NCBI GenBank assembly: GCA_020062745.1
Contig: JAGUVT010000014.1
Coordinates: 23,521 to 87,520 of the forward strand
Reading direction: 5' to 3'
Origin: Deltaproteobacteria bacterium
GTDB lineage: Bacteria > Bacillota > Desulfotomaculia > Desulfotomaculales > JAGUVT01
DNA length: 64,000 nucleotides
The notes beneath the pieces were generated by a model. That model had not been told where the DNA came from. It saw nothing but the letters and a program-made list of their open reading frames with translations, and made no database searches. The stretch's first letter is position 1. The number at the start of each line of letters is the position of its first letter. The position numbers and the translations under genes were made by a program. Below are positions 1,266 through 39,505 of the stretch, piece by piece.

Positions 1266-2201
<936 letters not shown>

Positions 2202-2275
2202 CTATAATTATTATACAGTATATAGTATACAGAATAAAGGAAAAAATAACCACTTAAATTATTATAGTTTTTAAA

Positions 2276-2707
2276 CTAACTTATAATTACCATAACATCC
2301 CCGGCATTAACGCTTTTGCCTTGTTCTACCTTTACTTCTTTAACGGTACCGGCTTTGTTGGCGGTAATCTCATTTTCCATCTTCATGGCTTCCAGCACAA
2401 GTAAAACTTCCCCTACCTTCACCTGTTCGCCTTCTTTAACTCGAACTGAAAGAACTGTGCCAGGCATGGGAGCTGTTACTGTACCGGCTGTAGCGGCTGC
2501 TCTAGGAGTGGGTGGAGGCATAACAGGAGATCTGGGAGCAATCGGCACAGTAGGAGCAGCAGGAACCGGTTTGACGGTTTTGGGAACAGGTGCCGACGCA
2601 GTTGCCGGCGCCGACGCTGCAGGAGATTGCGGACGGTATCCCGCCTCCACTTCCTCCACTTCGACTACATATACTTCGTTATTAACTTTAACTTTAAATG
2701 TTTTCAT
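2276..2707 (-). CDS. Biotin carboxyl carrier protein (transcarboxylase 1.3S-type subunit)
   Basis: 143 aa with C-terminal biotinyl domain and EAMKMENE biotin-lysine motif. A long Ala/Pro-rich linker is present. SD GGAGGGAAG lies 5 nt before the ATG. Confidence 0.9.
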
Positions 2708-2748
2708 CTAAACTTCCCTCCAATATAGTGGTTAGTGCTTTTTAATTT

Positions 2749-2952
2749 TTAAAGCAAGTCACGGTTAAAATCTCTTACCGACATCGATTCCAGCAATCCG
2801 GCTATCTTCCAGAGGCTGATCTGACCACTTTTTTGAATAGTGTGAACGCGGTACTCTTTCTCTTCAGCCGTGCCGTAAGCTTCAATGGCGGCCGTGATTG
2901 CTGCCAGAACGGCCGGTCTGAGCCGTTGTTGCTTTGTTAAAACATTCGGCAT
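2749..2952 (-). CDS. Small (67 aa) protein of the transcarboxylase operon, unknown function; OadG/MmdD-like C-terminal motif without a membrane anchor
   Basis: ORF with SD GGAG 6 nt upstream, packed tightly between the 12S and biotin-carrier genes. The segment RPAVLAAITAAIEAY resembles, from memory, the conserved soluble segment of decarboxylase gamma/delta subunits. Confidence 0.5.
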   Translation of the reverse strand: MPNVLTKQQRLRPAVLAAITAAIEAYGTAEEKEYRVHTIQKSGQISLWKIAGLLESMSVRDFNRDLL

Positions 2953-2965
2953 GGGGTTCTCCTTT

Positions 2966-4501
2966 CTAGCAGGGCATGTTCCCGTGTTTCTTTCTCGGCC
3001 TGCCTTCCCGTTTGGTAGCCAGTTCTTTAAAGGCGCTGATTACTTTAGCCCTGGTTTCCCGCGGGTCGATTACATCCAATACGTATCCCCTGGCACTGGC
3101 AATATACGGGTTGGCAAATTTATCACGGTATTCCTCGGTCAACCTGGCCCGGGTTTCCGGCGGGTTTTCAGACTCGTTGATTTCTTTGCGGCAAATGATA
3201 TTAACCGCCCCTTCCGGGCCCATTACTGCAATTTCAGCAGTGGGCCAGGCATAAACAGCGTCAGCCCGCAAGGAACTGCTGCACATGGCCACATAGGCGC
3301 CACCATAAGCTTTGCGGAGAATAATGGTTACTTTGGGAACAGTTGCTTCAGAATAAGCATAAAGAATTTTGGCTCCGTGCCTGATAATGCCGCCGTATTC
3401 CTGGCCGGTTCCCGGCAGGTAGCCCGGAACATCCATAAAAGTCAGCAAAGGGATATTAAAGCAATCGCAAAAACGGACAAACCGGCTTATTTTATCGGAA
3501 GCGTTAATGTCCAGGCAGCCTGCCAGATAATTAGGCTGATTGGCAATTATACCGACGGCCTGTCCTTCCAGCCGGGCAAAACCAACTACTGCATTTAAGG
3601 CGTAGTTGGCGTGGACTTCAAACAGTTCGCCGGTATCAACCACATAACGGATAATATTTCGCACGTCATAAGACTTATTCGGATCATCAGGGATTACTTT
3701 AATCAGTTCTTCGGCGTCGCCGGGTGGCGACTTGACTTCGCTTAAAGGCGGCTCTGAAAGGTTGTTTGAAGGTAAATAACTCAGCAGTTGGCGGATCATG
3801 GAAATACAATCCTCTTCGCTGTCGGCCATAAAGTGGGCCACTCCGCTGACCTGGTTGTGTGTGGCGGCGCCGCCCAGCGCTTCCATGGAAACGTCCTCGC
3901 CGGTAGTGGCTTTGATTACCTGGGGGCCGGTGATAAACATCTGGCTTTTTTCGGCCACCATGAAAATGTAGTCGGTTAATGCCGGCGAATAAACTGCGCC
4001 TCCGGCACATGGCCCCATAATTACCGAAATCTGAGGGATCACTCCGGAAGCAATGGTATTGCGATAGAATATCTCGCCGTAACCGTTAAGAGCATCCACT
4101 CCTTCCTGGATTCGGGCGCCGCCTGAGTCGTTAAGGCCGATTACCGGCGCCCCCACCTTCATGGCCGCATCAAGTGTCTTACAAATCTTGGCCGCATGGA
4201 TTCTGCCCAGAGAGCCGCCGGTTACCGTAAAGTCCTGGGCAAAAATATAAACCCTGCGGCCGTCGATCATCCCGTGGCCGGTAACCACTCCTTCACCGGG
4301 ATTCTTTAAATCAGCAACGTTTTCCTCACCGGCGAATACGTCCATTTCTACGAAAGTGCCGGCGTCAAACAAAGCGTTGATTCTCTCCCGGGCAGTCTTT
4401 TTGCCCGCCTCATGCTGTTTTTGAATGCGTTCCGGCCCGCCGCCTGCTTCAATTTGTTTCCGTAATTTTTTCAGTTGTTCTAATTTTTCCTGCATACTCA
4501 T
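2966..4501 (-). CDS. Methylmalonyl-CoA carboxyltransferase 12S subunit (propionyl-CoA carboxylase beta family)
   Basis: The track ORF is 2966..4540. I trimmed the start to ATG 4501 (MSMQEKLEQL...) because GGAGGT lies 7 nt upstream and this removes the overlap with the epimerase gene. Carboxyltransferase family sequence runs throughout (GGSLG, DSGGARIQEG, two crotonase-like halves). Confidence 0.93.
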   Translation of the reverse strand: MSMQEKLEQLKKLRKQIEAGGGPERIQKQHEAGKKTARERINALFDAGTFVEMDVFAGEENVADLKNPGEGVVTGHGMIDGRRVYIFAQDFTVTGGSLGRIHAAKICKTLDAAMKVGAPVIGLNDSGGARIQEGVDALNGYGEIFYRNTIASGVIPQISVIMGPCAGGAVYSPALTDYIFMVAEKSQMFITGPQVIKATTGEDVSMEALGGAATHNQVSGVAHFMADSEEDCISMIRQLLSYLPSNNLSEPPLSEVKSPPGDAEELIKVIPDDPNKSYDVRNIIRYVVDTGELFEVHANYALNAVVGFARLEGQAVGIIANQPNYLAGCLDINASDKISRFVRFCDCFNIPLLTFMDVPGYLPGTGQEYGGIIRHGAKILYAYSEATVPKVTIILRKAYGGAYVAMCSSSLRADAVYAWPTAEIAVMGPEGAVNIICRKEINESENPPETRARLTEEYRDKFANPYIASARGYVLDVIDPRETRAKVISAFKELATKREGRPRKKHGNMPC

Positions 4502-4520
4502 ATATGAAACCTCCAGTCTG

Positions 4521-4925
4521 CTAACGCTCGCATAGTTCAATCAGGGTGCCTAAAGTGGACTGTGGATGCAAAAAGGCGATCCGGGCGCCGCCGGCACCGC
4601 GGCGCGGTTTTTCATCAATCAGGCGGACACCTTTGGCTTTCAGTTCGGCTAACCTTGCTTCGAGGTTTTCCACCCGGAAAGCGACGTGCTGGATTCCCTC
4701 GCCGTTTTTTTCGATGTATCTGGCCACCGGCCCGTCAGGGGAGGTGGATTCTAAAAGCTCCACCTCGCTGTCTCCGGTGGGGAGAAAAGCAACTTTTACT
4801 TTTTGTTCTTCGACAATTTCCGTATCGGTTACCTTTAACCCCAGGAGTCCTTCGTAAAGTTCTATGGCTTTATTTAAGTCCTTGACGGCAACTCCGATAT
4901 GGTCGATCTTTTTAATCACTGACAT
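4521..4925 (-). CDS. mce: Methylmalonyl-CoA epimerase (VOC/glyoxalase fold)
   Basis: 134 aa with IDHIGVAV...GIQHVAF...FLHP metal-ligand pattern typical of the epimerase. The true start may be GTG 4919, which has GGGAGGG 6 nt upstream. Confidence 0.88.
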
Positions 4926-4958
4926 CCCTCCCTTATTTATTAAAATATATCCATTTTT

Positions 4959-6656
4959 TTAAAATATAACCTGCTGCTCGTATTCGCCAAAGACTTCTCT
5001 TAACACGCCGCATATTTCTCCCAGCGTGGCATAATTTCTCACCGCTTCAATAAAGATGGGCATTAAATTATCCTTGCCTGCCGCTGCTTTGCGCAACCCG
5101 GACAGAATTGATTCCACCCTGGCATTGTCTCTTCCGGCCCGTAACTTTTTCAATTTTTCCGCCTGGCGCTCGCCGACGGTCAGGTCTACTTTCAACAGGT
5201 CTTTCGGTTTCTCCGGCGGCATTACGAATTTATTGACACCGATGACCACCTTCTGGCCCGACTCAATATCTTGCTGATATTTATAAGCGCTGTTGTGGAT
5301 TTCCCGCTGCATAAAGTCCAGAGCTTTTGTCGAACCGCCCAATTCGTCGATTTTGCTGATATACTGTTGTGCTTTTTCCTCCAACTGGCCGGTCAGGTTT
5401 TCCATAAAGTAAGAACCGCCCAGTGGATCCACAGTATCGGCGACACCAATTTCATAGCCGACCACCTGTTGGGTACGCAGGGCGATTAATACCGATTCTT
5501 CAGTCGGCAGGGCCAGGGCTTCGTCCCGGGAGTTGGTGTGCAGGGATTGGGTTCCTCCCAGAACGGCGCTCAAAGCCTGGAACGCCACCCGCATGATATT
5601 TACATCGGGCTGCTGGGCGGTTAGAGTACAGCCGGCAGTTTGGGTATGGAACCGTAACATGCACGGGCGGGGATTTTTGGCCCCGAACCGTTCTTTCATG
5701 ATTTTCGCCCATAAGCGGCGGGCAGCCCGGAACTTGGCTATTTCTTCAAAGAAGTTGAGGTGGGCGTTGAAGAAGAAAGACAACCTGCCGGCAAAATCAT
5801 CTATGTTCAATCCGGCTTTAACGGCCGCATCTACGTAGGCGATACCGTTTGCCAGGGTGAACGCGACTTCCTGAGCGGCAGTGGATCCGGCTTCTCTGAT
5901 ATGATAACCGCTGATGCTGATCGTATTCCAGGCCGGTATTTCTTTGGCGCAATAAGCAAAGATATCGGTGATCAGGCGCATGGAGGGCTCCGGTGGCAGA
6001 ATATAAGTGCCTCTGGCGATATACTCCTTCAAGATGTCATTTTGGATAGTGCCATTTAGTTTTGACGGCTCTACTCCCTGTTTCTCAGCAACTGCAATAT
6101 ACATGGCCAGTAAAATGGCGGCCGGTGCGTTAATGGTCATGGAGGTGCTTACTTTATCAAGAGGTATTTGGTCAAATAGGGTTTCCATATCCATGATGGA
6201 GTCGATGGCTACCCCTACTTTGCCGACTTCCCCGCTGGCCAGCGGATGATCGGAATCATATCCGATCTGGGTGGGCAAATCGAAAGCTACCGAGAGGCCG
6301 GTTTGACCCTGCTCCAACAGATAACGGAAGCGGCGGTTGGTTTCTTCCGCTGTGCCGAATCCGGCGTACTGGCGCATGGTCCACAACCGCCCGCGGTACA
6401 TGTTCGGCTGTACTCCGCGGGTAAAAGGATACTCGCCGGGCAATCCCAGATCCTGCATATAATCAAAATCAGCGTCCGGCGTATAGAGACACTCAATTGG
6501 CACCCCTGAGTCGGTGCTGAAGTCCGCCTGCCGTTCGGGACGTTTTTTTAAGGTTGTTTCCAGTCTGGTTTGCCAGGCCTCTTTGAGAGCAGCAATTTCT
6601 TTTAGTTTTTCTTGATTAAACAAAACCTTCCTCCTTTCTTTTCTCCCCTTCGTCAA
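4959..6656 (-). CDS. mcmA: Methylmalonyl-CoA mutase, catalytic (N-terminal, substrate-binding) subunit; no fused B12-binding domain
   Basis: The canonical MCM signature is intact: RQYAGF (Tyr89), [14 protein letters not shown] (Gln197/Arg207) and SGYH (Tyr243/His244), in P. shermanii numbering. The protein ends at ~565 aa, before where the cobalamin domain would start. The start is more likely TTG 6623 (AGGAGG 6 nt upstream) than TTG 6656. Confidence 0.92.
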
Positions 6657-7523
6657 TCAAGCCAAAAGTTTTCTAATCATCTCCGGTACTTCGGACGGCA
6701 TTTCGGCTACCAGGGCGCCGGCTTCGGCAAGGGCTTTTACTTTCCCCTCGTAAGTTCCTTTACCTCTTCTGATAATTGCTCCGGCGTGACCCATCCGTTT
6801 TTCCGGGGGGGCGCTCTTGCCGGCAATATAAGCTACCACCGGCTTGGTCATCTCTTTAATATAAACCGAGGCTTCTTCCTCGGCGTTGCCGCCGATTTCG
6901 CCAATCAACACAACAGCTTTTGTTTCCGGATCGGCTTCAAAAAGTTTTAGCACGTCAATAAAAGTAAGACCCACAATGCGGTCTCCGCCCATACCGACAG
7001 CAGTGGATTGACCGAACCCGGCTGCAATCAAGTTTCCTGCGATCTCGTAAGTTAAAGTTCCGCTGCGGGATACCATTCCCACCGGACCGGGCATGAAAAA
7101 CTGGTTGGGCGGTATGCCTATTTTGCATTTACCGGAAGAAACAATACCAAACGTGTTGGGCCCGATGAGGACGGCCTTCTTCCGCTGGGCATAGGCTATA
7201 AACTCCATTTCGTCCTGTACCGGAATATGTTCAGTGATCACTACCACAGTGCCGATTCCCGCCTCCAGGGCTTCCAGGACGGCATCTTTGGCGAAGGCGG
7301 CAGGGATAAAGATTACCGACGCATCGACCTGATGTTCTTGTAAAACCGCCCGTACCGTGTCGTAAACCGGTATGTCTTCAAATTTGCTGCCGCCTTTCCC
7401 CGGCGCCACGCCGGCTACAACCTTCGTGCCATAAGCCAACATTTGCCTGGTGTGAAAAGAACCTTGCTTACCAGTAATACCCTGGACCATAACACGGGTA
7501 TTTTGATCAACAATAATGGCCAC
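6657..7523 (-). CDS. sucD: Succinyl-CoA synthetase alpha subunit
   Basis: 288 aa with [12 protein letters not shown] and the phosphohistidine loop MGHAGAI. GTG start. Confidence 0.93.
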
Positions 7524-7543
7524 TAATAAGACAACCCCTTTAA

Positions 7544-8674
7544 CTAAAGACTTCCTGCCGGTACCAGTGCAGCCAGTTCTACCGCCTTGGCTGCCGCCTC
7601 GTCCATATTCGTGTAAGCTTCAATCCCCTGTTCCCGCAAAATACGCCTTCCTTCCTCCTGGTTGGTACCCACCAGCCTGATTACCACCGGTACAGGGATG
7701 CCGTGCTCTTTTTTTACCTTTGCGAAGGCGCCGGCAACATCATCGCACCGGGTAATACCGCCGAATATGTTAATAAAAATTACTTTCGGATCTTTCGCCA
7801 GCAAAATTTCTAAAGCTTTGGCAGTAGCCTCCATATCGGTTCCGCCGCCTACATCCATAAAATCGGCCGGCGCGCCGCCGTAACGCTGGATTATATCCAG
7901 GGTGCTCATGGTAATGCCAGCGCCGTTTGCCATTACGGCAATGTCCCCCTCCAGTTCAACATATGAAATGCCGAGGTCCTGGGCCAGTTTTTCTGCTTCG
8001 GTTTGTTCTTCTATATATGGAATGTCTTTCTGCCTGAACAGGGCTTCAGAGTCAATGATTACCTTGGCGTCAGCCGCAATAATTTTTTCTCCGCAGAATA
8101 CCAACGGGTTAATCTCAACCAGTATAGCATCTTTCTCCTGAAATATTTTATATGCCGCCAGAATAATATTAAGCAGCTCTTTTCCCTGCCTGCTGCCTAC
8201 ATCCAGACCCAGCCGGCGAACAATGTTGCGGGCAATAAAAGGGTGTATCCCGAGTTCCACATCGAGGTGTACTTTGACAATTTTATTTTCAGGCACTTCT
8301 TCAATATCCATGCCCCCCTGGCTGGAAGCAATGATTACCGGTTTCTTAGCTCCTCCGTCAATCGTGACGGACAGGTAAAACTCCCGGTCGATATGCAACT
8401 TTTCTTCGATCAGCAGCTTTTCTACCGTATGCCCCTCGATTTTCATGCCTAACAATTCCCGGGCAGCTTTTTTAGCCTCTGCCGACGTGTCGGCAAATTT
8501 AATGCCGCCGCCTTTTCCCCGTTTACCTGAAAGAACCTGTGCTTTGATTGCTACCGAACCGATTTCCGTAGCAACCCAGGCTGCTTCATAAGCAGTGGTA
8601 ACCACTCTTCCTTTTGGCACCCGCAGGCCAAAGCGGCTGAAAAGTTCCTTTCCCATGTATTCAAATATTCTCAC
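7544..8674 (-). CDS. sucC: Succinyl-CoA synthetase beta subunit (ATP-grasp)
   Basis: 376 aa with N-terminus [12 protein letters not shown] and an ATP-grasp plus ligase-CoA domain order. GTG start, adjacent to sucD. Confidence 0.93.
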
Positions 8675-8711
8675 TGCCTAATTCTTCCCCTCCGGTTATT
8701 TATTAATACAA

Positions 8712-9830
8712 TTAACGAGGTTCAAGTTCTACCTCCTTATAGGTAGTCAGAGGCAATTTTTCCTCCCGGTCTTTACCCGGGATGTAATCGAACAGGTCCT
8801 GAACCTTTTTACCAACAGCCCTGAATATAATGGAAATGGGCAGTTCGCTGGGACAGGCGCTTTCACACTGGCCGCACCCAATGCAACTCATACCCATGTG
8901 ATTAAGTCTGGTCAGATGGAACAGCACTGTATCGGTGGGCATTTCAATTATGCCCTTGCGGGAAGCCCATTTAATATATTTTTCCGGTTCATGATCGAAA
9001 ACAGGACCTTCAAAAACACATTGCCGGCAAAAACACAACGGGCAGGCCCGGCGGCAGTTCTGACAGCGGAGACAGGTGGCCAGTTCGGCCGTCAATGCCT
9101 CTATGTTATCGAACTTCCGGTCGAACTCATGAAAAACCCTTTCTTTTTCTGCCGCCCGATTTTCCTTCAAACGGGCAATCAGAGTCAGCCTTTCAGCCGG
9201 CATTTCTATTTCCTCCAAAGCTAAATTTTCTTTGAGCATGGAAGCAATTTCATCCGGCATGGAAATGACGAATTGCTCATTCAACCCTACCCACCCGATT
9301 GTCAGATCAACATTTTCCGGCACAATCTGGTCGCAAGTCCGGCAGCAATGCCGGATTGTAACGTTGCCCGTCCCAATGTTTTCCCCTTTTGCGGCCTGGT
9401 TTATCCAAACGTCCTGGGTAAGCAGGTTTTTACCTGCCATCCGGGAGTAATCTGTGGGATTAAAAGTACCCAAACAATCTACCCCGATTAATAATAAGTG
9501 ATCGAGGGAAGCCTGATTTAATTTGACCAGTTCTACCAGCGCCCGTGCTTCACAGGGACGCAGCACGACCCCGATTTTCTCTTCTGGATCGGTGAAAGTG
9601 AGATCGGAAACATGCCTGGCTGCATTAGCCAGGCTGACGGGAGCCAGCGGAGCAACTGCCGCAATCCGGTCGGCTTCTTTCACCAGGGTGGAAACCACGC
9701 TGTTTTTAGAAGTTACTTCCTGGGGAACCAGTAATGAGTCAACTGCTTTTTCAGTTAATAAGGCACGAAAGAAGGATAACAAAGCAGTGCCAGGATTTTG
9801 CCCGGTAAATTTTAACGACATGTTTTTCAT
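8712..9830 (-). CDS. FrhB/FdhB-family-like iron-sulfur (flavo)protein with two C-terminal [4Fe-4S] ferredoxin motifs
   Basis: The track ORF is 8712..9860. I prefer ATG 9830 (MKNMSLKF...), which has GAGGT 7 nt upstream. Motifs CLRCQNCRRACP and CIGCGQCESACP are present. The N-terminal two thirds resemble the F420-hydrogenase/formate-dehydrogenase beta-subunit fold. That family assignment was made by eye only. Confidence 0.65.
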   Translation of the reverse strand: MKNMSLKFTGQNPGTALLSFFRALLTEKAVDSLLVPQEVTSKNSVVSTLVKEADRIAAVAPLAPVSLANAARHVSDLTFTDPEEKIGVVLRPCEARALVELVKLNQASLDHLLLIGVDCLGTFNPTDYSRMAGKNLLTQDVWINQAAKGENIGTGNVTIRHCCRTCDQIVPENVDLTIGWVGLNEQFVISMPDEIASMLKENLALEEIEMPAERLTLIARLKENRAAEKERVFHEFDRKFDNIEALTAELATCLRCQNCRRACPLCFCRQCVFEGPVFDHEPEKYIKWASRKGIIEMPTDTVLFHLTRLNHMGMSCIGCGQCESACPSELPISIIFRAVGKKVQDLFDYIPGKDREEKLPLTTYKEVELEPR

Positions 9831-9847
9831 TAAATATACCTCGCTGC

Positions 9848-10339
9848 TTAAATTTCCCACTGCATTTTAAGTGGATTGGGCCCCAATTTTTTCAAGGCAT
9901 CTACCATCTGCTGCACTGTTTCCCCGAACAGCTTTCCTTCTGAAGCACTGATAAATCTAAACCAGACCCGCTCCTCCGGAATGCCGAATTGTTTTAAAAT
10001 GGTTTTGACCACGGCAATTTTACGCCTGGCCTTGAGATTACCACTAACATAGTGGCACTCGCCAGCGTGTCACCCTCCTACCAATACCCCATCGACTCCT
10101 TCCAAAATTGGCTTTAAAATATAGAGAGGGTCTACCGAACCGGTACACATAACCCGGATAATCCTGATATTGGGGGGATACTGAATGCGGGAAGTGCCTG
10201 CCAGATCGGCTCCGGTATAGGTACACCAGTTACAGAAAAGGGCTATGATTTTCGGTTCAAACTCTTGCTCTGTTTGTGATTCGAAAACTGCTTCTGCCGG
10301 TTGCAAAGGCACAATACCTCCTTTAGCCAAGAGCAGCAT
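9848..10339 (-). CDS. mvhD: MvhD/FlxD-like electron-transfer protein, predicted selenoprotein (UGA-Sec at 10070-10072); 163 aa when read through
   Basis: The track stops the ORF at TGA 10070-10072 (89 aa). The same frame continues for 73 more codons to TAA 9848-9850: ...GVLVGG-U-HAGECHYVSGNLKARRKIAVVKTILKQFGIPEERVWFRFISASEGKLF.... This matches the MvhD core (FCNWCTYTGADLAG...RVMCTG...GGCHxGDCHY...SASEG). The start may be GTG 10312 (AAGGAGG upstream). Confidence 0.75.
10023..10067 (-). promoter_or_regulatory. SECIS-like stem-loop directly downstream of the in-frame UGA
   Basis: Thirteen nt after the UGA is the hairpin UGCCACUA-UGU-UAGUGGUA (10039-10057, GU in the apical loop). It is stacked on a lower helix CGCUGGC / GCCAG(G)CG (10061-10067 pairing with 10023-10030). 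Confidence 0.55.
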
Positions 10340-13181
10340 CTGCCATGGCTATAATTTGTTGTTTGGCAAAACCTTTTTGCTGTGATGCCCCGCTGGGACA
10401 GGATGCCACACAGGCGCCGCAGCCCTGGCAAAGCACCTCGTGCACACGGGCGATCATCCCGTTTTCCCTGTCCAGATAGCGGGCGTCATAAGCACAAACC
10501 GCAACGCAGAGACCGCATCCCTTGCAGCAATCCTCGTCCACTGTAGCCACAATGCCGAGGCTTTCCAGACGGTCTTTGGATAAAAGGGTTACCGCCCGCA
10601 CTGCGGCTGCATTAGCCTGGGCTATCGACTCGCCGAGCAGTTTCGGCGAATGGCCCAGACCGCACAGGTAAATGCCGTCGGCAGCAAAGTCTACCGGGCG
10701 GAGTTTCATGTGCGCTTCAGCAAAAAACCTGTCTGCCGTCAGCGCCACCTTGAATAACCAGCTTAACTTTTCGTTATCACTACGTGGTGCCACACCAGTG
10801 CTCAAAACCAGCAAATCGGCGTCTAAGGATACTTGTTCCCCCAAAACCGGGTCATTTACCTGCAGAGTAAGATGCGAGCCGGAAGCAGTAACTGACGGTT
10901 TATTTTCAAGGTCGTAACGGATGAAAATCACCCCTTTCGACCTGGCCTTTTTATAGTATTTTTCCATGAAGCCGTACATCCGGACATCGCGGTAAAGAAT
11001 GAAAACGTTGGCCGCCGGATTTATTTCTTTGATTTTAAGGGCGTTTTTTATGGCATGGGAACAACAAATCCGGCTGCAGTAAGGACGCCCTTCCTGTCTT
11101 GAACCGACGCACTGGATCATGACTATGTTTTTAACCCCCGGCAGTTCGTTTCCCACTATTTTATGTTCCAGTTCGGTTTGGGTCAATACAGACGGGTGTT
11201 CTCCGTACATGTACTCCTCCGGCCTCGCTTCCCGGGCGCCGATAGCCATGATTACGACTCCATGGGTCAGCTCTCTGATTTCTCTGCCCAGCTTTACTTT
11301 TGTGCGGTAATTGCCAACATAACCCGATACTTCCTTGATTTCGGCTCCTGTGAGCACCGTTATCCGGGGATTTTCCTGTAATTGGTTAACCAGTCGACCT
11401 AATAAAACCTGCGGATTGTTACCCTGGATCGTGTAAAAAAGGTTCCGGGCATTTCCTCCCAGTTCCTTTTCTTTTTCTACCAAGTAGACGTCAAATCCCT
11501 GACCGGCCAGAGACAAAGCTGCAGTTATCCCCGCCATTCCCCCGCCGGCCACCAGGGCCCGCCTGTTGACCTCAATAAAAGAGGTGGCAACCGGTTCCAA
11601 CAAGCAGGCCTTGGCTACTGACATGGAAACCAGTTCTTTGGCTTTCTCGGTAGCTGCCGCCGGCTGGTCGCGGTGAACCCATGCGGAATGTTCACGGATG
11701 TTGGCCTGTTCAAACAAATGGGGATTAAGGCCAGCCTCCCGCATGCTGCTCATAAACAGGGGAGCATGAGTGCGGGGAGTACAAGAGGCTACCACCAGAC
11801 GGTTTAAACCATATTCGATAATCCGCTCTTTTATCTTCTGAATGTTATCCTGCGAGCAGGTGAATAGAAATTCTTCAGCGTATTTGACGTTTCGCAGGCC
11901 GCCGGCATATTTGACTACTTCCGGCACGTTGATTATGCCGCCGATATTTATGCCGCAATTACACACGAATACTCCTACCGACGGCTCTTCGTCGCTGACA
12001 TCTCTTTCCGGCGGATATTCTTTAGCAGCGGTTAAAGAACCGCGGGCAGTACTCAAAAGACAGGAGGCATGAGCTGCCGCAGCACTGGATTCCACTACCG
12101 TTTCCGGAATGTCTTTTGGTCCGCAAAAAGCGCCGCTGACAAATACGCCCTCTTTTGATGTGCAGCCCGGTTTAAATTCATCAGGCTGGCAGAAGCCGTA
12201 TTCATTTAGTTTGATTCCCGTTCTTCCAGCTAGTTCCCCCGCGGAAGCAGACGGACGCAGGCCAACTGACAGAACAACCAGGTCAAAATCTTCCTCGGCA
12301 AATTTTCCGTTAGCTTTACGGTACTTGATCCGGAGGGTCTTTTCTTGTTGTAATTCCCTCACCGTCGAGACGATACATTTTTCATAGCGCACCCCATGTT
12401 CCAGCCTGGCCCTGTCGTAGTACTTCTCAAAATCCTTGCCGAAAGCCCGCACATCTATGTAAAATATGGCAGTCTCCAGGCCGGGTACGTGTTCCTGGGC
12501 GATAATGGCCTGCTTGGTCGCATACATACAGCAAACCGCCGAGCAGTATTCACTTCCCTTATCGGTACTGTCGCGGGAACCGATACACTGGATGAAGGCG
12601 ATCTTTTTGGGTTCTGTTTTATCCGAGGGACGTACCAGGTGTCCCTGGAAAGGACCGGAAGCGCTCAACATGCGCTCGAACTGGATGCTGGTCAGCACAT
12701 TGGGGTAAATTCCCCACCCGAACTCTTGCCTTAGTCTGGCGTCAAAGGGTTCGAACCCGGGGCTTAAGATGACTGCGCCGGCTGCCAGTTCTATCTCTTC
12801 ATCGCTCATCGAATGGTCAATTGCTGCAGGCAGGCAGACCTTTGTGCATTCCAGGCATTCTGAACATACACCGCAGTTCAGGCACCGTTCGGCTTCTTTT
12901 TTGGCCTGCTGCAGGGTATAGCCGGCGCTGACCTCGCTGAAATTTTTAGCTCTCTCCACCGGTTCGGCGCAAGAAACAGGCTCGGGCTCAAACCGCGGGA
13001 TCTCATCCCCGGCGAAGCGAAGCGGGGCTACCTTTTCCTCTGATACCTTAAAGGTGTTCTTTAACTCCAGTCCCTGTAAATACTGGTGAATGGACTCAGC
13101 CGCCAGTTTGCCGGCTGCCACCGCTTCAATTACCGTCTTCGGTCCGGTCACGGCGTCGCCGCCGGCAAAAACGCCGGGCAA
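10323..13181 (-). CDS. HdrL-like giant flavo-Fe-S protein, C-terminal ORF (end of GltD-like module, remainder of first HdrA unit, second HdrA unit, C-terminal 2x[4Fe-4S] ferredoxin)
   Basis: 952-aa ORF that begins inside the GltD FAD motif (L)PGVFAGGDAVTGPKTVIEAVAAGKLAA. HdrA motifs QCIGSRD...CSAVCCMYA and QCVGSRQ...CSRICCSHA are present, as is a second dinucleotide fold VAGGGMAGITAAL. The terminal motifs are CKGCGLCVAVC and CQGCGACVASCP. The frame is open upstream of the annotated TTG. Confidence 0.85.
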   Translation of the reverse strand: MPGVFAGGDAVTGPKTVIEAVAAGKLAAESIHQYLQGLELKNTFKVSEEKVAPLRFAGDEIPRFEPEPVSCAEPVERAKNFSEVSAGYTLQQAKKEAERCLNCGVCSECLECTKVCLPAAIDHSMSDEEIELAAGAVILSPGFEPFDARLRQEFGWGIYPNVLTSIQFERMLSASGPFQGHLVRPSDKTEPKKIAFIQCIGSRDSTDKGSEYCSAVCCMYATKQAIIAQEHVPGLETAIFYIDVRAFGKDFEKYYDRARLEHGVRYEKCIVSTVRELQQEKTLRIKYRKANGKFAEEDFDLVVLSVGLRPSASAGELAGRTGIKLNEYGFCQPDEFKPGCTSKEGVFVSGAFCGPKDIPETVVESSAAAAHASCLLSTARGSLTAAKEYPPERDVSDEEPSVGVFVCNCGINIGGIINVPEVVKYAGGLRNVKYAEEFLFTCSQDNIQKIKERIIEYGLNRLVVASCTPRTHAPLFMSSMREAGLNPHLFEQANIREHSAWVHRDQPAAATEKAKELVSMSVAKACLLEPVATSFIEVNRRALVAGGGMAGITAALSLAGQGFDVYLVEKEKELGGNARNLFYTIQGNNPQVLLGRLVNQLQENPRITVLTGAEIKEVSGYVGNYRTKVKLGREIRELTHGVVIMAIGAREARPEEYMYGEHPSVLTQTELEHKIVGNELPGVKNIVMIQCVGSRQEGRPYCSRICCSHAIKNALKIKEINPAANVFILYRDVRMYGFMEKYYKKARSKGVIFIRYDLENKPSVTASGSHLTLQVNDPVLGEQVSLDADLLVLSTGVAPRSDNEKLSWLFKVALTADRFFAEAHMKLRPVDFAADGIYLCGLGHSPKLLGESIAQANAAAVRAVTLLSKDRLESLGIVATVDEDCCKGCGLCVAVCAYDARYLDRENGMIARVHEVLCQGCGACVASCPSGASQQKGFAKQQIIAMADAALG

Positions 13182-13234
13182 ATCAGTAGCTAAAGTTTCC
13201 TGAACAGCTGTAATATTGCCGCTCCGGCTTATAT

Positions 13235-14743
13235 TTACCGGGAGATCAAGAGGCAGGTCTGGTTTTGACCCACGGCCAGGAGCACTGTATCCGCTTCCAG
13301 GAAAAACTCGCTTCCTTTTACCGGTATGGGAGCGAGCCGGCCGCTGGCGTCGGGCTCACTCAGTTCATTCCGGAGGCATTCCATGCGCGTCAGCCTGCCG
13401 TTTTCGCCGTGGAAAGCCTTGGGAGCCGTCAACATCAGGAATGCGATGCCTTCTTCTTTGGCTTCTCTAATTTCTTCCGGAAGGGCCGTGATTTCCGCCT
13501 CGGTTCGCCGGTATACGATGGTAACGTTTTCTGCGCCCAGGCGCAATGCCGTACGGGCACAATCCATGGCTGTGTTTCCACCGCCGATTACAGCTACCTG
13601 CCGGCCGACTTCTACTTTTTCACCCAGGGCTACGCTACGCAAGAAATCTAGGCCGTGCATCACTCCGTTAAGTTCTTCTCCTGGCACACCCAACCGGGTG
13701 CCCTTGTGGGCGCCGATAGCCAGAAAAACCGCCTGGTAAGCTTCATCCTGTAGACTTTGCAGGGTGAAGTCCTTACCCAGCCCGGTGTTATAACGAATCT
13801 CAAGCCCCATTTTAATCAGCAGTTCGACTTCCAACTGCACCCACTTTTTGGGCAACCGGTACTCGGGGATACCCACGCGCATCATCCCGCCAGCCACCGG
13901 TAAGGCTTCAAATACTGTTACCGTATAGCCTTTCTTAAGCAACTGGTAAGCTGCTGACAAACCAGCCGGGCCGGCGCCGACAACAGCCACCTTTTTGTTT
14001 TTCGCTTCTTCGCTTGCCGGCAGAGGCAGTTCACCCAAGTTATTATAGGCAAAGTCTGCCGCCACCCGTTTAAGATGCATAATATTAACCGGCTTATCAA
14101 TACTGCTCCGGTGGCACCCGGTCTGGCAGGGGTGCGTACAGATCCGTCCACAGGCTGCCGGGAAAGGATTGTCCCGGTAAACCATCTGCCACGCTTCCAT
14201 AAGTTTACCTGTTTTGATCAACTGGATGTATCCCTGTGCGTTTACACCTGCCGGGCAGGCTGCCCGGCAGGGCGGTATGCCTGTTTTTTCAATGGCGAAG
14301 GCGTTGGGGGTAGCCTGCGGGTAGAACTTGTAAATAGCCTTTCGCTGTGCCAGTCCGGCGTCAAAGTCGCTGGTAACTTCCACCGGACAGGCCCGGGCGC
14401 AGTCGCCGCATCCGGTACATTTTTCCAAGTCCACATACCGGGCCTTTTTCTTCAATTTAACCCGGAAGTTGCCCGGCTCACCGCTTAAGCTCCGGACTTC
14501 GGCGCCAGTCAGGACCTGGATATTGAGGTGCCGCCCGGTATCAACCAGCCGTGGGGACATGGTGCACATGGCGCAATCGTTGGTCGGAAAGGTTTTGTCC
14601 AGCCGGGCCATGGTGCCGCCGATAGCCGTCTGGTTTTCTACCAGGTAGACTTTAAAACCGGCTTCGGCCAGGTCCAGGGCCGACTGCATGCCGCTAATAC
14701 CGCCTCCGACAACCATTACGGCGCCGATTTTTTCATTATTCAT
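13235..14743 (-). CDS. HdrL-like giant flavo-Fe-S protein, N-terminal ORF (HdrA N-terminus plus inserted GltD/NfnB-like NAD(P)H module), ends prematurely
   Basis: 502 aa with VVGGGISGMQSALDLA...LDKTFPTNDCAMC (HdrA N-terminus), then VAVVGAGPAGLSAAY...VIGGGNTAMDCART (glutamate-synthase-small-subunit-like module). SD AAGGAAGG precedes the start. It stops 9 codons after the conserved ADTVLLAVGQ. The rest of the domain continues in the -1 frame. Confidence 0.85.
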   Translation of the reverse strand: MNNEKIGAVMVVGGGISGMQSALDLAEAGFKVYLVENQTAIGGTMARLDKTFPTNDCAMCTMSPRLVDTGRHLNIQVLTGAEVRSLSGEPGNFRVKLKKKARYVDLEKCTGCGDCARACPVEVTSDFDAGLAQRKAIYKFYPQATPNAFAIEKTGIPPCRAACPAGVNAQGYIQLIKTGKLMEAWQMVYRDNPFPAACGRICTHPCQTGCHRSSIDKPVNIMHLKRVAADFAYNNLGELPLPASEEAKNKKVAVVGAGPAGLSAAYQLLKKGYTVTVFEALPVAGGMMRVGIPEYRLPKKWVQLEVELLIKMGLEIRYNTGLGKDFTLQSLQDEAYQAVFLAIGAHKGTRLGVPGEELNGVMHGLDFLRSVALGEKVEVGRQVAVIGGGNTAMDCARTALRLGAENVTIVYRRTEAEITALPEEIREAKEEGIAFLMLTAPKAFHGENGRLTRMECLRNELSEPDASGRLAPIPVKGSEFFLEADTVLLAVGQNQTCLLISR

Positions 14744-14847
14744 AAGCGAAACCTTCCTTAGGTGAATTTAGATGAACTTTGCAAAACTACTCAACAACCG
14801 ACTACCTTTGATTAGGAAAAATTTCCTCTTTTCTATTTTATTAAAAA

Positions 14848-14870
14848 CTGACTGCTGACTGCTGACTGCT
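14848..14870. repeat. 7-bp tandem repeat (CTGACTG x3.3) in the 140-bp hdrB-hdrL intergenic gap
   Basis: Direct reading gives ctgactg ctgactg ctgactg ct at 14848-14870. Confidence 0.85.
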
Positions 14871-14883
14871 TAATAGCCGGACA

Positions 14884-15741
14884 TTAGCCCGCTAAAGACA
14901 GTGAACGCAACAGCGGAAACGGATCCACCAGATGTTTCGGCCACCAGTTCCGTTCTTCCGGCATGCCGAAAGCCAGACCGATTAGTTCGGTAAAGAAAAA
15001 TGCTGGGATGCCGCTAAATGGTTTCTTTCTTCTCATTTCCAGGTTGGACTGGCAGAGCGGACAGGCAGTAACAATGGCCATGGCTCCGGCTTCGGCGGCC
15101 ATATCTAAAAGAAGCCCGACCATTTCCTGGACGGCGTCGCTTTTAACCAGGCTTAAACTGGCTCCGCAACAATCGGTCTTATACGACCACATTAAAGGTT
15201 CTGCTCCCAGGCTGGAAACTATTTTATCCAAAATAACCGGATTTTCTGTTTGGTCAAAGCCGGTTATTTCCGGCGGACGAACCAGCAGGCAACCGTAATA
15301 ACAAACCACCTTCAAACCGGTAAGCGGCTTTTTTACCAGACTTGCCATGGTGTCCGCGCCGACCTGGTAATAAATAGTTTCCAGCAATGACTGAACGTTA
15401 ACTGTGCCGTTAAATTTAAAGCCCACCACTTCTTCCACTTTTTTACGTTCCACTTCATTTTCTTGCAGGACATAAGCAGCAGTTTTTAAACGGTTGTAGC
15501 AGGCCGAGCAGGGGGCAACCAGACATTGCGCCGCTTCTTCCTGGGCCAGGGCCAGGTTACGGGCCGGTAAGGCCAGGGCCAGCAAATGATTGATGCTATG
15601 GGCGGAAGTAGCGCCGCAGCAATTCCAGTCCTGCAGTTCTGCCATTTCCAGACCCAGGTGACGGCATACCGTCCTGGCCGAAAGGTCATATTCTTTAGCC
15701 GTGGCTTCCAGCGAACACCCTGGATAATAAGCTATTTTCAA
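14884..15741 (-). CDS. hdrB: Heterodisulfide reductase subunit B-like protein (two CCG domains)
   Basis: 285 aa with two CCG repeats: YYPGCS...NCCGATS...APCSACY and YYGCLL...DCCGASL...TACPLCQ. TTG start with AAAGGTGG upstream. Confidence 0.9.
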   Translation of the reverse strand: MKIAYYPGCSLEATAKEYDLSARTVCRHLGLEMAELQDWNCCGATSAHSINHLLALALPARNLALAQEEAAQCLVAPCSACYNRLKTAAYVLQENEVERKKVEEVVGFKFNGTVNVQSLLETIYYQVGADTMASLVKKPLTGLKVVCYYGCLLVRPPEITGFDQTENPVILDKIVSSLGAEPLMWSYKTDCCGASLSLVKSDAVQEMVGLLLDMAAEAGAMAIVTACPLCQSNLEMRRKKPFSGIPAFFFTELIGLAFGMPEERNWWPKHLVDPFPLLRSLSLAG

Positions 15742-15765
15742 TTAATTATACCACCTTTTAGAGCT

Positions 15766-16326
15766 TTATTGTTTGGCGGCTTCTTTGAAAATTTGCCGGA
15801 CTTCTTTTAGCCGTTTAATTCTCTTGGGCAAAAAAGCAAACTTCCCTTTTTTAAACATCTTCAGTCCGATATCCAGGTCGGCAAACAGTGTCCTGCTTCT
15901 CAGCTTGTACTGCGCCATCATTGACAGTTCATGCACTCGCCCGTCGCGGCGCACTGAATTTAAAAAAGCGTTATGAAACAGGGGGATATTTTTCTCTCCG
16001 GATAGTGCCCGCTCTTTAACGGCCATCTCGCGCAGGGCATCCGTTACAGCAGCAATTTTGATGCCGTTCGGGCAGCGGGCGCCGCACGTTTCGCAGCCGG
16101 AACAAAGCCAGATAAAAGAACTGTTAAGGATGCGCTCTTTGAGGCCGTACTGAATCATTCGTACTACCTGGTTGGGGTGATAATCGGCATGCTCTGCTAC
16201 CGGACAGCCGGAAGAACACTTTTGGCACTGGTAACACAACTCAATGGCTTGACCGGACCGTTTTTTAATTTCCTGTATAAAGGATAGATCCAGCATAACG
16301 GGTCCTTTCGAAGTCATGATCTGCAC
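15766..16326 (-). CDS. hdrC: Heterodisulfide reductase subunit C-like protein (2x[4Fe-4S])
   Basis: Motifs CYQCQKCSSGCP and CSGCETCGARCP are present. The true start may be ATG 16296 (AAAGGA 6 nt upstream). Confidence 0.88.
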   Translation of the reverse strand: MQIMTSKGPVMLDLSFIQEIKKRSGQAIELCYQCQKCSSGCPVAEHADYHPNQVVRMIQYGLKERILNSSFIWLCSGCETCGARCPNGIKIAAVTDALREMAVKERALSGEKNIPLFHNAFLNSVRRDGRVHELSMMAQYKLRSRTLFADLDIGLKMFKKGKFAFLPKRIKRLKEVRQIFKEAAKQ

Positions 16327-16343
16327 TATTAATCACTCTCTTT

Positions 16344-16979
16344 TTAATAATCATTTTCATGAGGGATATCATTATTGGGGAAATTGCCACCGAAAGCATC
16401 ATTGGCCACCCTCAAGGGCATGTTCTCAATTACCATTTCGTAAATGGCTTCTGTTCCCAGTTCAGGGTAGGCGATCACCCGGGCATCTTTTATACACTTG
16501 GAAATCAGCGCGGCTGCTCCGGAAAAAGTAACAAAATAAACAGCTTTATATTTTTTCATGGCTTCAATTACTTTTTGTGACCGGTACCCCTTGCCGATGG
16601 TCCCCTTTAAACCTAAAGCAAGAAGCCTGGGAGTGTAAACATCCATTCGTTCACTGGTGGTCGGTCCGGCCGAACCGATTACATGGCCGGGCCTGGCCGG
16701 AGTCGGTCCGGCATAAAAAATAACCTGGCCTTTGAGATCAATTGGCAACTCTTTACCTTGATCCAAAAGTTCGCTTAGCTTTTTATGAGCAGCATCACGG
16801 GCTGTATAAAGTCTGCCGCTCAAGGCAACCCGGTGGCCAGCTCTTAAGATTTCTACGACTTCATCAGTTAAAGGGGTTGAAAGTTTAATCTGATCCACCT
16901 TAGAACCATCTCCTCCATCTCCCTTTTTATCTCTTTCTTTTAATGTTTGGGGCAAGCTTTTTATTTGTATACTCTTCAT
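16344..16979 (-). CDS. fumB: Class I fumarate hydratase, beta (C-terminal domain) subunit
   Basis: Core sequence IKLSTPLTDEVVEILRAGHRVALSGRLYTARDAAHKKL...GPTTSERMD. ATG 16979 overlaps the alpha-subunit stop (ATGA). An alternative start is GTG 16898 (VDQIKLSTPL), preceded by GGAGATGGAGGAG. Confidence 0.88.
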   Translation of the reverse strand: MKSIQIKSLPQTLKERDKKGDGGDGSKVDQIKLSTPLTDEVVEILRAGHRVALSGRLYTARDAAHKKLSELLDQGKELPIDLKGQVIFYAGPTPARPGHVIGSAGPTTSERMDVYTPRLLALGLKGTIGKGYRSQKVIEAMKKYKAVYFVTFSGAAALISKCIKDARVIAYPELGTEAIYEMVIENMPLRVANDAFGGNFPNNDIPHENDY

Positions 16980-17821
16980 AAAATAGCACTCTTGTAGCGG
17001 CTGGCATGGCAGTTTATATTTACCGCTACCGGCAGGCTGGCTATATGGGTGGCGAAGACCTCCACATGAACGGCCAGAGCGGTAGTCTTACCGCCGATTC
17101 CCAGGGGACCTATATCCAAAGCATTAATTTCCTCCAGCAACTCCTCTTCCAGACAAGCTATATCGGCCATCCTGCTTTTCTTTCCCACGGGCCTGAGCAA
17201 GGCTTCTTTTGCAATCAGCGCGGCTTTTTCAAAATTTCCACCGATACCTACCCCCAGCACTACCGGCGGGCAAGCATTAGGACCAGCTTCTTTTACCACG
17301 TTAATGACGAACTTCTTAACTCCTTCCACACCTTCCGACGGTTTCAACATTTTAATGGCGCTGGTATTTTCACTACCGCACCCCTTGGCCAGAACAGTTA
17401 GCTTTAAATTTTCACCCGGTACTATATTGGTATGAATTATTGCTGGAGTATTATCTCCGGTATTCTTCCGTTCCAACGGATGTCTTACTATTGACTTGCG
17501 CAGGTAGCCTTCGCGGTACCCTTTCCTTACCCCCTCGTTAATCGCCTTATAAAAATCTCCACCAGTGACATGAACGTCCTGTCCAAGTTCTATAAAAACA
17601 ACAGCAAAACCCGTATCCTGGCAGATTGGGATACCTTCCGTACGGGCGATTTCGGCATTTTTAATCAGATTTTGGATAATCCTTTTCCCTGGAATGGACA
17701 CTTCTTGTTCATATGCTTTTTGAAAACTATCCAGGACATCTTTTCCAAGATTAAAGTTGGCTTCTTGGCATAGTCGCGCTACAGCTTCAATGATTAAATT
17801 GGTGTCGATAGATTTTATGAT
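16976..17821 (-). CDS. fumA: Class I fumarate hydratase, alpha (N-terminal domain) subunit; probable non-canonical start codon
   Basis: The track ORF starts at GTG 17701. The frame stays open for 40 more codons, IIKSIDTNLIIEAVARLCQEANFNLGKDVLDSFQKAYEQE, which looks like the conserved fumarase N-terminus. A strong SD AAGAGGAGGGGG sits just upstream of ATC 17821 / ATA 17818. The PICQDTG motif follows. Confidence 0.8.
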   Translation of the reverse strand: MIKSIDTNLIIEAVARLCQEANFNLGKDVLDSFQKAYEQEVSIPGKRIIQNLIKNAEIARTEGIPICQDTGFAVVFIELGQDVHVTGGDFYKAINEGVRKGYREGYLRKSIVRHPLERKNTGDNTPAIIHTNIVPGENLKLTVLAKGCGSENTSAIKMLKPSEGVEGVKKFVINVVKEAGPNACPPVVLGVGIGGNFEKAALIAKEALLRPVGKKSRMADIACLEEELLEEINALDIGPLGIGGKTTALAVHVEVFATHIASLPVAVNINCHASRYKSAIL

Positions 17822-31951: not shown

Positions 31952-32734
31952 TCAGTTGCCTTTGAATGCCGGCTTTCTTTTGTTTAAAAAAGCTTCGATT
32001 CCTTCTGCGTGGTCAGCAGTGGTAAAAGTAAGGGCAAACAGGTCGGCCTCATGAATAAAAGCTTTTTCCATGTCCATTTCCAGCCCTTCGTTAACGGCTT
32101 CTTTGGACAGGCGAACGGCTACCGGCCCTTTAGCGGCAATGCGGCCGGCCATCTTTTTGCAAAAGTCGATTAGCTCTCCTGACGGAACAACATGGTTCAC
32201 CAGTCCAATCCTCAAGGCAGCCTGCGCATCATATTGATCTGCCGTGAAAAGTATTTCTTTGGCTATCCCGGGATTGACCAGCCTGGTCAAACGCTGGGTA
32301 CCGCCAAAACCGGCCATCAGTCCGAGATTTACTTCCGGCTGGCCGAATTTTGCATTTTCCGACGCCACCCGGATATCGCAGGCCATAGCCAGCTCGCACC
32401 CGCCACCCAGGGCAAAACCGTTAACAGCGGCAATAACCGGCTTGGGCAGATTTTCAATACGACTGAACACCTGCTGCCCGTGGCGGGCAAAGTCCCTGGC
32501 CTGCAAAGGGTCGAGGGATTGCATAAACTTGATATCGGCGCCGGCTACAAAAGCTTTGTCACCAGCCCCAGTCAAGATAATCACCCGTATTGCCGGGTTG
32601 ACAGCCAGTTCGGTCATTGCTTCGTCCAGTTCGCCAAGTGTCTCCGTATCGAGGGCATTTAACAATTTCGGACGATTTATGATTACTAAAGCCAGATTAT
32701 CTTCTGTTTCTACCAGGATATTTTTCCACACCAT
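31952..32734 (-). CDS. crt: Enoyl-CoA hydratase (crotonase)
   Basis: I trimmed the start to ATG 32734 (GGGGGG 7 nt upstream). The crotonase fold is supported by FVAGADIK and GGGCELAMACD. Confidence 0.9.
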   Translation of the reverse strand: MVWKNILVETEDNLALVIINRPKLLNALDTETLGELDEAMTELAVNPAIRVIILTGAGDKAFVAGADIKFMQSLDPLQARDFARHGQQVFSRIENLPKPVIAAVNGFALGGGCELAMACDIRVASENAKFGQPEVNLGLMAGFGGTQRLTRLVNPGIAKEILFTADQYDAQAALRIGLVNHVVPSGELIDFCKKMAGRIAAKGPVAVRLSKEAVNEGLEMDMEKAFIHEADLFALTFTTADHAEGIEAFLNKRKPAFKGN

Positions 32735-32757
32735 TATTAATCCCCCCTTCGCCTGTT

Positions 32758-33606: not shown

Positions 33607-33634
33607 TAATAAGCCTCCTTTGCTCAATAACAAG

Positions 33635-34819: not shown

Positions 34820-34860
34820 TATTTGCTTACTCCTCCCCCATTCGATTTGTGGTAAAAACG

Positions 34861-36831: not shown

Positions 36832-36975
36832 GACAATCTCTCCTTTTTTTAATATTGCAACAAAAATTGCCACGTGTTTCCCCGGTTTAACATCTAACCC
36901 CAAACTCATAAAGCCTGTAGAAGAAAGTATTCTCTCCTTGCAATAATCTTTTTTCAACAGGCTCCTCTTTTTGTT

Positions 36976-38115: not shown

Positions 38116-38149
38116 CTGCCTCTCCCCTTAATTAATAATATTTTTTTGT

Positions 38150-39328: not shown

Positions 39329-39454
39329 AATAGTTCCCCCTTTTTTAATACAATTCTATACATGGACCTTTTGTCGGTAGCAAGAAGAATAGCTTAACAG
39401 ATAAGAATTCTCCAAAAATAGTTCAATTCCTCCCGCCGGGTAGGCACTTTTCAC

Positions 39455-39505
39455 TTAAAAAGCAGCATGTCTTACACGTTTCAAGAGTACGTGCCCATGC
39501 TGCTT
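39455..39505 (-). terminator. Rho-independent terminator after the mutase pair
   Basis: The minus-strand RNA forms the outer stem AAGCAGCAUG/CAUGCUGCUU (39460-39469 pairing with 39496-39505) and the inner stem CACGU/ACGUG, followed by UUUUUAA. Confidence 0.6.

Follow-up and report, generated by a model that had tools for sequence, protein, structure and literature searches.

Does the TGA codon at positions 10072-10070 of the DNA analyzed here terminate a short gene on the minus strand, or does it encode selenocysteine (Sec) within a longer one? The question concerns an mvhD gene in a 64,000-nucleotide stretch (positions 23,521 to 87,520 of contig JAGUVT010000014.1, assembly GCA_020062745.1), filed as a Deltaproteobacteria bacterium and placed by GTDB in the Desulfotomaculia. 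This whole stretch is referred to below as the window. Comparison of the codon with its counterparts in homologous genes and analysis of the RNA downstream of it make it highly likely that the UGA encodes Sec.

Analysis of the minus strand revealed an open reading frame (ORF) that starts at ATG 10339 and ends at TGA 10072-10070, after which the same frame remains open for 73 further codons up to TAA 9850-9848. The first-pass annotation of this DNA had described an MvhD-like frame running through the TGA to this TAA, and both coordinates and sequence were confirmed. The product across the UGA reads ...DGVLVGG-*-HAGECHYVSGNLKARRK... In the Sec form, the peptide bridging the UGA is GVLVGG-U-HPGDCHYGSGNYK, and the motif at this site is GG-U-H-A-G-E-C-H-Y. 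With a cysteine placed at the stop, the product matched PF02662 (FlpD, methyl-viologen-reducing hydrogenase delta subunit) over positions 1-123 of the 123-position profile, at an E value of 3e-49 and a score of 166.6 bits (curated cut-off, 22.3 bits), and the match spans the TGA. Solved MvhD chains of methanogen Hdr complexes in the Protein Data Bank (PDB) align with residues 17-149 (E value, 5e-50). The nearest database homologues are Cys-bearing proteins of 140-154 amino acids that cover both flanks of the stop with 62-77% identity. The conserved cysteine pattern of MvhD/FlpD proteins (C-x-x-C, M-C-(S/T)-G, and G-C-H-x-G-(D/E)-C-H-Y) is represented by four Cys codons (10234-10232, 10225-10223, 10147-10145, and 10057-10055) and by the UGA (10072-10070) at the fifth position.

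Public gene calls split this gene, as the first-pass annotation had expected of automatic pipelines. The Joint Genome Institute (JGI) calls comprise 89 and 54 amino acids, and the NCBI-derived calls comprise 78 and 54 amino acids. Both annotated fragments are one gene, mvhD. The start codon ATG 10339, used in the 89-amino-acid JGI call and in the mechanical ORF list, lies inside the end of the preceding hdrL gene and has no ribosome-binding site (region 10313-10339). Inspection of the sequence revealed an AAGGAGG motif (10317..10323, minus strand) followed by in-frame GTG 10312 and TTG 10306 codons. The hdrL stop codon overlaps this ribosome-binding site, and mvhD thus directly follows an HdrA-type gene. 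A start at GTG 10312 or TTG 10306 is more likely because AAGGAGG lies upstream of these codons and ATG 10339 falls within hdrL. The gene would then occupy 9848..10312 on the minus strand, an assignment based on the Pfam match, the PDB chains, and the Cys homologues, and its product is likely to have about 152-154 amino acids. The proposal of a single MvhD protein read through the UGA therefore holds, with its length of 163 amino acids and its start at ATG 10339 corrected accordingly.

To place the UGA codon (10070..10072), a codon survey was performed on loci encoding relatives, 80 from genomes and 80 from metagenomes (numbered with the prefix L; one metagenome locus, L148, lacks the motif and was not scored). 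In these about 160 homologous loci, the codon at the UGA column is TGC, TGT, or TGA only. At the protein level, all 230 of 230 full-length motif-bearing homologues carry Cys in this column, the first Cys of GG-C-HxG(D/E)CHY. The claim that the UGA falls on a conserved Cys was thereby substantiated. TGA at the identical codon was found in seven distinct Desulfotomaculia sequences. Three of these come from genomes of isolates, Desulfofundulus australicus DSM 11792, D. thermosubterraneus DSM 16057, and Desulforadius tongensis DSM 29799; further carriers are a Desulfovirgula metagenome-assembled genome (MAG), the Bacillota MAG MES5, and two metagenome contigs. The clade of the window itself is present with TGA in four metagenome samples, a JGI copy and three more. 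Comparison of the window with the JGI contig copy (3300037880, Ga0394678_47359) over 6.3 kb revealed one differing base in an A run and one mismatch, and the TGA is the same in both. A second TGA lineage has the codon in the DNA of five assemblies, and its N-terminal fragment ends exactly at ...VGG. The N-terminal fragments of this lineage and of the window fall into one 90%-identity cluster, and the two genes are 79% identical across a 126-codon core. The syntenic orthologues L174 and L176 (hdrL-mvhD-frhB-like...sucCD) have Cys at the UGA column. On sequence evidence, this distribution of UGA and Cys corresponds to a classic Cys/Sec pair.

One locus of the survey, L011 (Desulfotomaculum sp. 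GB_MAG20; codon at 3220), is a Cys-type mvhD with TGT in place of TGA. Its product has 87% amino acid identity to those of the Sec-type loci L012 (Desulforadius) and L013 (MAG MES5), and the two types differ by five substitutions in the 19-nucleotide region of the hairpin described below. L011 looks like a recent switch from Sec to Cys with loss of the RNA element, or from Cys to Sec with its gain. Its decayed hairpin likewise looks like a constraint that was relaxed after the UGA was lost.

The sequence that follows the UGA behaves as coding sequence. At codons +1 to +19, which precede the sole alternative start codon, GTG 10012, the amino acids are kept across lineages while the synonymous sites vary; the post-UGA Ala, Arg, Arg, and Ala codons, for example, are each represented by three to four different codons among lineages. 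Conservation of the amino acids together with variation at synonymous positions indicates that the stretch between the UGA and GTG 10012 is translated. The codon after the UGA (10067-10069) is CAC in every Sec-type gene (L005, L010, L012-L015, and the window), which creates a UGA-C context, and Cys-type mvhD genes have CAC or CAT after the Cys codon. TGA serves as the ordinary stop of 9 of the 48 window genes, in none of which the next base is C. Genome-wide reassignment of UGA was rejected on account of these nine terminators. Among 57 TGA-bridged ORF pairs in the window, mvhD is the sole pair in a real coding frame, and none of the others is convincing as a further selenoprotein gene.

The RNA downstream of the UGA contains a candidate bacterial Sec insertion sequence (SECIS). 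The element is a hairpin, UGCCACUA-UGU-UAGUGGUA (10057-10039, minus strand), with an 8-bp stem and a UGU loop, and it lies within the codons for C-H-Y-V-S-G-N. The spacer between the UGA and the hairpin measures 12 nucleotides, so that the stem starts at the 13th nucleotide. An 8-bp hairpin with a UGU or UGG loop is present at the same place in all seven distinct TGA-type sequences. Its folding free energy (dG) ranges from -8.9 to -12.2 kcal/mol in the seven Sec-type sequences versus -0.6 to -4.2 kcal/mol in six Cys-type comparators. None of these comparators has the hairpin; among them are two syntenic orthologues and three genes whose CHYVSGN peptide is identical. In the RNAalifold consensus of the seven Sec-type sequences, the 8-bp hairpin is the sole structure.

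Codon usage within the hairpin was compared with that of the remaining gene in the seven Sec-type sequences. The hairpin contains six codons whose amino acid never varies, and five of them are invariant as codons too, compared to 3 of 67 such codons outside it (Fisher p = 2e-5). The sixth hairpin codon varies between GGU and GGC only, which keeps a G-U or G-C pair, and the CAC right after the UGA is one of the three invariant codons outside. Pairs of Sec-type genes that are 69-73% identical overall in nucleotides show 89-100% identity in the hairpin, whereas the hairpin region of Sec-versus-Cys pairs stays at background identity (68-74%). These results indicate that the hairpin is under selection and is strictly tied to the UGA. 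They support the first-pass observation of an 8-bp hairpin with GU in its loop 13 nucleotides downstream and add that it is confined to TGA-type genes and that its synonymous sites are frozen. Judged by its free energy, the consensus fold, and these frozen sites, the element at 10039..10057 has the expected signature of a bacterial SECIS.

The first-pass annotation had also counted a stacked second helix toward the SECIS geometry. The minimum-energy fold of the window does add a lower helix (10068-10061 / 10030-10022) as well as a pairing of GAG 10060-10058 with CUC 10036-10034, and the 66-nucleotide fold reaches a dG of -24.9 (z = -2.3 versus shuffles). These lower helices flanking the hairpin (10022..10068, minus strand) are a feature of the window fold only and are not conserved in the orthologues. 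The lower helix was rejected as a conserved part of the element: across orthologues, 67.9% of its cells are paired, which is the level of shuffles, and it does not belong to the RNAalifold consensus.

Several observations weigh against decoding of the UGA as Sec. The stem shows no compensatory double substitutions, as seven of its eight pairs are constant and one alternates between G-C and G-U only; the structural case consequently consists of conservation and of the contrast between Sec-type and Cys-type genes and not of covariation. An invariant stem of this kind bears on pairing in neither direction. The loop has just 3 nucleotides, or 5 with the closing A-U pair open, and a bulged U is not evident. 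The covariance search that had been proposed for the element gave no Rfam SECIS match, neither in the whole window at the gathering threshold nor in 9800-10400 at E <= 10, and returned only chance matches to lncRNA (long noncoding RNA) families. Bacterial SECIS elements are poorly captured by Rfam-type covariance models. Finally, neither the 64-kb window nor positions 14786-94233 of the contig, which is about 94 kb long, yielded a selA, selB, selD, or tRNA-Sec gene. This search covered the window and about 15 kb of contig flanks (roughly 79 kb) and used ARAGORN, which found only a tRNA-Leu, Pfam analysis of about 30 further ORFs, and JGI gene calls on the contig flanks. The absence of sel genes here says little, since these genes usually lie elsewhere in the genome.

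The lack of Sec machinery in the sequence searched and the missing Rfam match are also what favors a different explanation of the conserved hairpin, namely that a near-cognate tRNA for Cys or Trp decodes the UGA inefficiently and yields a full-length protein free of selenium. The hairpin would then only slow the ribosome or hinder access of the release factor, and the invariant UGA-C context, which is generally known to be leaky for termination, would fit as well. However, the UGA stands precisely where a redox or ligand Cys is otherwise found, in a column without any other residue, and both the location and the dimensions of the hairpin agree with SelB-dependent elements. It is also unlikely that an essential cluster ligand supplied by inefficient miscoding would last across several genera, and in related Clostridia this family is well established as one of selenoproteins (PMC1794560). 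Selenium-free read-through is therefore considered improbable.

The public gene calls and the presence of a GTG codon at 10012 would suit a gene that is truly split or truncated, with an N-terminal fragment of roughly 80 amino acids and possibly a 54-amino-acid fragment initiated at this GTG. The 19 codons that follow the UGA and precede GTG 10012 argue against such a split, because they include the invariant Cys of CHY and keep their amino acids with varying synonymous sites in seven lineages. Moreover, no ribosome-binding site is evident upstream of the GTG, and a fragment lacking two conserved cysteines could not hold the cluster, so that a split gene appears very improbable. The remaining possibility, that the TGA stems from faulty sequencing or assembly or that a nonsense mutation has recently made mvhD a pseudogene, gains some credit from one clear 1-nucleotide homopolymer error in the window copy of the contig, which frameshifts the neighboring hdrL. 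The TGA difference, however, is of the substitution type and not a homopolymer indel. The same TGA is present in the independent JGI contig copy, in three other metagenome samples, and in six more lineages, three of them represented by isolate genomes, and the downstream frame is intact and conserved. An error or pseudogene is effectively refuted.

With Sec as the preferred decoding of UGA 10072-10070, the hairpin at 10057-10039 would bind SelB carrying Sec-tRNA(Sec) during translation of mvhD. SelB would supply Sec at the UGA, where it would compete with release factor 2, and the weak UGA-C termination context may aid insertion. The predicted product is a [2Fe-2S] protein of about 153 amino acids with Sec in place of the Cys67-type residue. 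Homology and gene order suggest that MvhD(Sec) would act as an electron-transfer adaptor in an Hdr-like flavin-based bifurcating or confurcating complex together with HdrL, HdrB-like, HdrC-like, and FrhB-like subunits. We infer SelB binding, selenium incorporation, the role of Sec as a ligand, and the physiological partners of the protein. Sec is in use among relatives of the host. Desulfotomaculum reducens has eight selenoproteins, including a Sec-containing FrhD and HdrA for which losses in sister organisms are on record (PMC1794560), and the annotation of Desulfofundulus salinus lists a Sec-containing formate dehydrogenase (PMC11206085).

The position of the proposed Sec was compared with the conserved cysteines of methanogen MvhD (Cys 13, 16, 42, 67, and 72), of which Cys16 is an additional Cys located between the cluster and FAD (PMC13580544). 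The UGA column corresponds to Cys67, a His follows the Sec, and Glu replaces Asp71. The CNWC site of the window protein (column 16) is encoded by TGT 10225-10223, i.e., as Cys. The Cys67-type residue is very probably one of the four [2Fe-2S] ligands (Cys13, 42, 67, and 72); this assignment follows by elimination, since Cys16 is the extra, non-ligand Cys (PMC13580544). The first-pass statement that the UGA lies on a cluster-ligand Cys is thus a reasonable deduction from the methanogen protein. In methanogen MvhD, an HdrA cysteine pair holds an unidentified ligand with which His68 and Asp71 are in contact (PMC13580544). The residue in the Sec column would adjoin this His and the Asp/Glu, both of them conserved and, in the methanogen complexes, directed toward the HdrA cysteine pair and the flavin.

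Sec-containing MvhD-type proteins had been cited as already known from methanogens and anaerobic bacteria, and the literature agrees (PMC1794560, PMC2702500, PMC4989117). Catalogues of selenoproteins have listed Sec-containing FrhD/MvhD members from Clostridia and Deltaproteobacteria since 2006, with examples in Desulfotomaculum reducens, Syntrophomonas wolfei, Carboxydothermus hydrogenoformans, and Moorella thermoacetica (PMC1794560), and they are included in current reviews (PMC13188914). In Desulfobacterium autotrophicum, the Sec-containing mvhD1, 2, 3, and 5 adjoin hdrA/hdrL (PMC2702500). The window gene resembles these bacterial cases in its PF02662 family, its place after an HdrA/HdrL-type gene, the in-frame UGA at a conserved Cys, and the bacterial class. 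The likeness is at family level. The window gene differs from them in its lineage and its mmc-operon context, which none of the published examples consulted shares, and in that the public records of its lineage are still split.

The archaeal VhuD proteins of Methanococcales and Methanopyrus (NCBIfam NF045873) are homologous to the window protein (E value, 1.7e-41) and are likewise [2Fe-2S] adaptors on HdrA. They contain two Sec residues 50 codons apart (PMC4989117), whereas the window protein has one Sec and retains Cys at the CxxU site. The Sec site of the window probably equals the second VhuD site, as the 50-codon spacing fits columns 16 and 67. The NF045873 score of the window protein (141.4 bits) lies below the curated cut-off of 215 bits and its CxxU site is TGT (Cys), so that it was not assigned to the archaeal two-Sec VhuD proteins. 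Archaeal SECIS elements are located in the 3' untranslated region and have another shape, in contrast to the bacterial-style hairpin inside the coding sequence of the window gene. A large-scale search for proteins similar to a methanococcal MvhD retrieved no U-containing entries but only Cys isoforms.

BamF of the class II benzoyl-CoA reductase from Geobacter metallireducens is also a bacterial selenoprotein and an MvhD-homologous [2Fe-2S] adaptor of an HdrA-type bifurcating module (bioRxiv 10.64898/2026.04.10.717634). Its Sec19 occupies the non-ligand Cys16-type site, whereas the proposed Sec of the window protein occupies the Cys67-type site (bioRxiv 10.64898/2026.04.10.717634). BamF is more than 100 amino acids longer than the window MvhD and has extra domains.

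For the RNA element, the relevant models are the bacterial SECIS elements of E. coli fdhF and of Moorella thermoacetica fdhA, the latter bound by SelB. These are in-frame hairpins that begin about 11-13 nucleotides after the UGA and have G/U at the apical loop. The window hairpin is similar in its location in the reading frame, its 12-nucleotide spacer, and the G and U in its loop. It differs by its very small loop (UGU/UGG), by a bulged U that is not evident, and by a sequence specific to the mvhD clade.

The genes surrounding mvhD encode further Hdr-type subunits. Immediately upstream lies the hdrL-type gene (10323..14743, minus strand), which encodes a GltD/NfnB-like protein fused to an HdrA-like domain (1473 amino acids in the JGI copy). 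In the window, hdrL is split into ORFs of 502 and 952 amino acids by a 1-nucleotide deletion in an A run at about 13266 (13261-13270); the window reads CAAAAC versus CAAAAAC in the JGI copy, in which the 1473-amino-acid frame is intact. The hdrL frameshift is a homopolymer error of this assembly version and not biology. The sole mismatch between the two copies is at 13005. Profile matches identified an HdrB-like protein with CCG domains (14884-15741) and an HdrC-like protein (15766-16326), both encoded on the minus strand. The HdrB-like protein also has weak matches to TfrB and SdhE. Downstream of mvhD, the gene at 8712..9830 (minus strand) encodes a FrhB/FdhB-like Fe-S/flavin subunit of 372 amino acids, recognized by Pfam and syntenic in L174 and L176. 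This protein is a probable electron-input partner of MvhD.

The order of genes on the minus strand is fumarase (two subunits), HdrC-like, HdrB-like, HdrL, MvhD(Sec), FrhB/FdhB-like, SucC, and SucD, followed by methylmalonyl-CoA mutase, epimerase, carboxyltransferase, two small ORFs, malate dehydrogenase, and the 5S transcarboxylase subunit. The two small ORFs (67 and 143 amino acids) have no Pfam match. By its predicted gene products, this cluster represents the methylmalonyl-CoA pathway of propionate oxidation. The hdrCB-hdrL-mvhD-frhB-like genes are thus embedded in a methylmalonyl-CoA operon (1266-17701, minus strand), flanked by the genes for fumarase and for succinyl-CoA synthetase. In the Cys-type loci L174 and L176, genes for an Fe-S protein and for a 535-amino-acid FAD_binding_2 flavoprotein of the fumarate-reductase/succinate-dehydrogenase type stand between frhB-like and sucC; they are absent in the window. 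There are hints of an Hdr-linked soluble succinate/fumarate module comparable to the thiol:fumarate reductase of methanogens.

A second acyl-CoA cluster (31952-41595, minus strand) contains a methylmalonyl-CoA-mutase-like pair (543 amino acids and a 134-amino-acid B12-binding subunit), a family III CoA-transferase, an acyl-CoA dehydrogenase, a 698-amino-acid Fe-S/CCG oxidoreductase, a thiolase, a 3-hydroxyacyl-CoA dehydrogenase, and an enoyl-CoA hydratase. A third mutase pair is located at 55769-57874 on the plus strand. The MutS protein shows 92% identity to that of a Peptococcaceae MAG, about 64% to those of Pelotomaculum MAGs, and 61% to that of Desulfofundulus kuznetsovii, and spore-germination genes are present on the contig. 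These sequence features identify the host as an uncultured spore-forming, Pelotomaculum/Desulfofundulus-like member of the Desulfotomaculia, which is probably a syntrophic propionate oxidizer.

Taken at the level of sequence, mvhD is very probably a genuine selenoprotein gene that has been mis-annotated, in a family for which Cys/Sec exchange and the recoding mechanism are already established. The calls of 89 or 78 and 54 amino acids recur in each public copy examined, and metabolic reconstructions of the syntrophic and sulfate-reducing Firmicutes of these lineages consequently miss an intact Hdr-complex subunit and a selenium requirement. The natural Se/S pair at the Cys67-type site is a useful probe, since syntenic Cys orthologues exist. 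The main residual novelty is the likely Se ligation of a [2Fe-2S] cluster in a complex encoded within a propionate-oxidation operon. The probable Se ligand adjoins the His/Asp(Glu) pair that has been implicated in the hand-over of electrons from the MvhD cluster to the bifurcating flavin (PMC13580544). A broader interpretation can be offered only tentatively and is, in our estimate, rather doubtful: a clade-wide, unannotated Hdr-associated MvhD with Se as a direct [2Fe-2S] ligand may exist in Desulfofundulus, Desulforadius, Desulfovirgula, and Pelotomaculum-like bacteria, and it would here be part of the HdrL/HdrBC/FrhB-like complex of the methylmalonyl-CoA operon. If this were true, selenium would be required for those electron transfers in syntrophic propionate oxidation that are thermodynamically the hardest.

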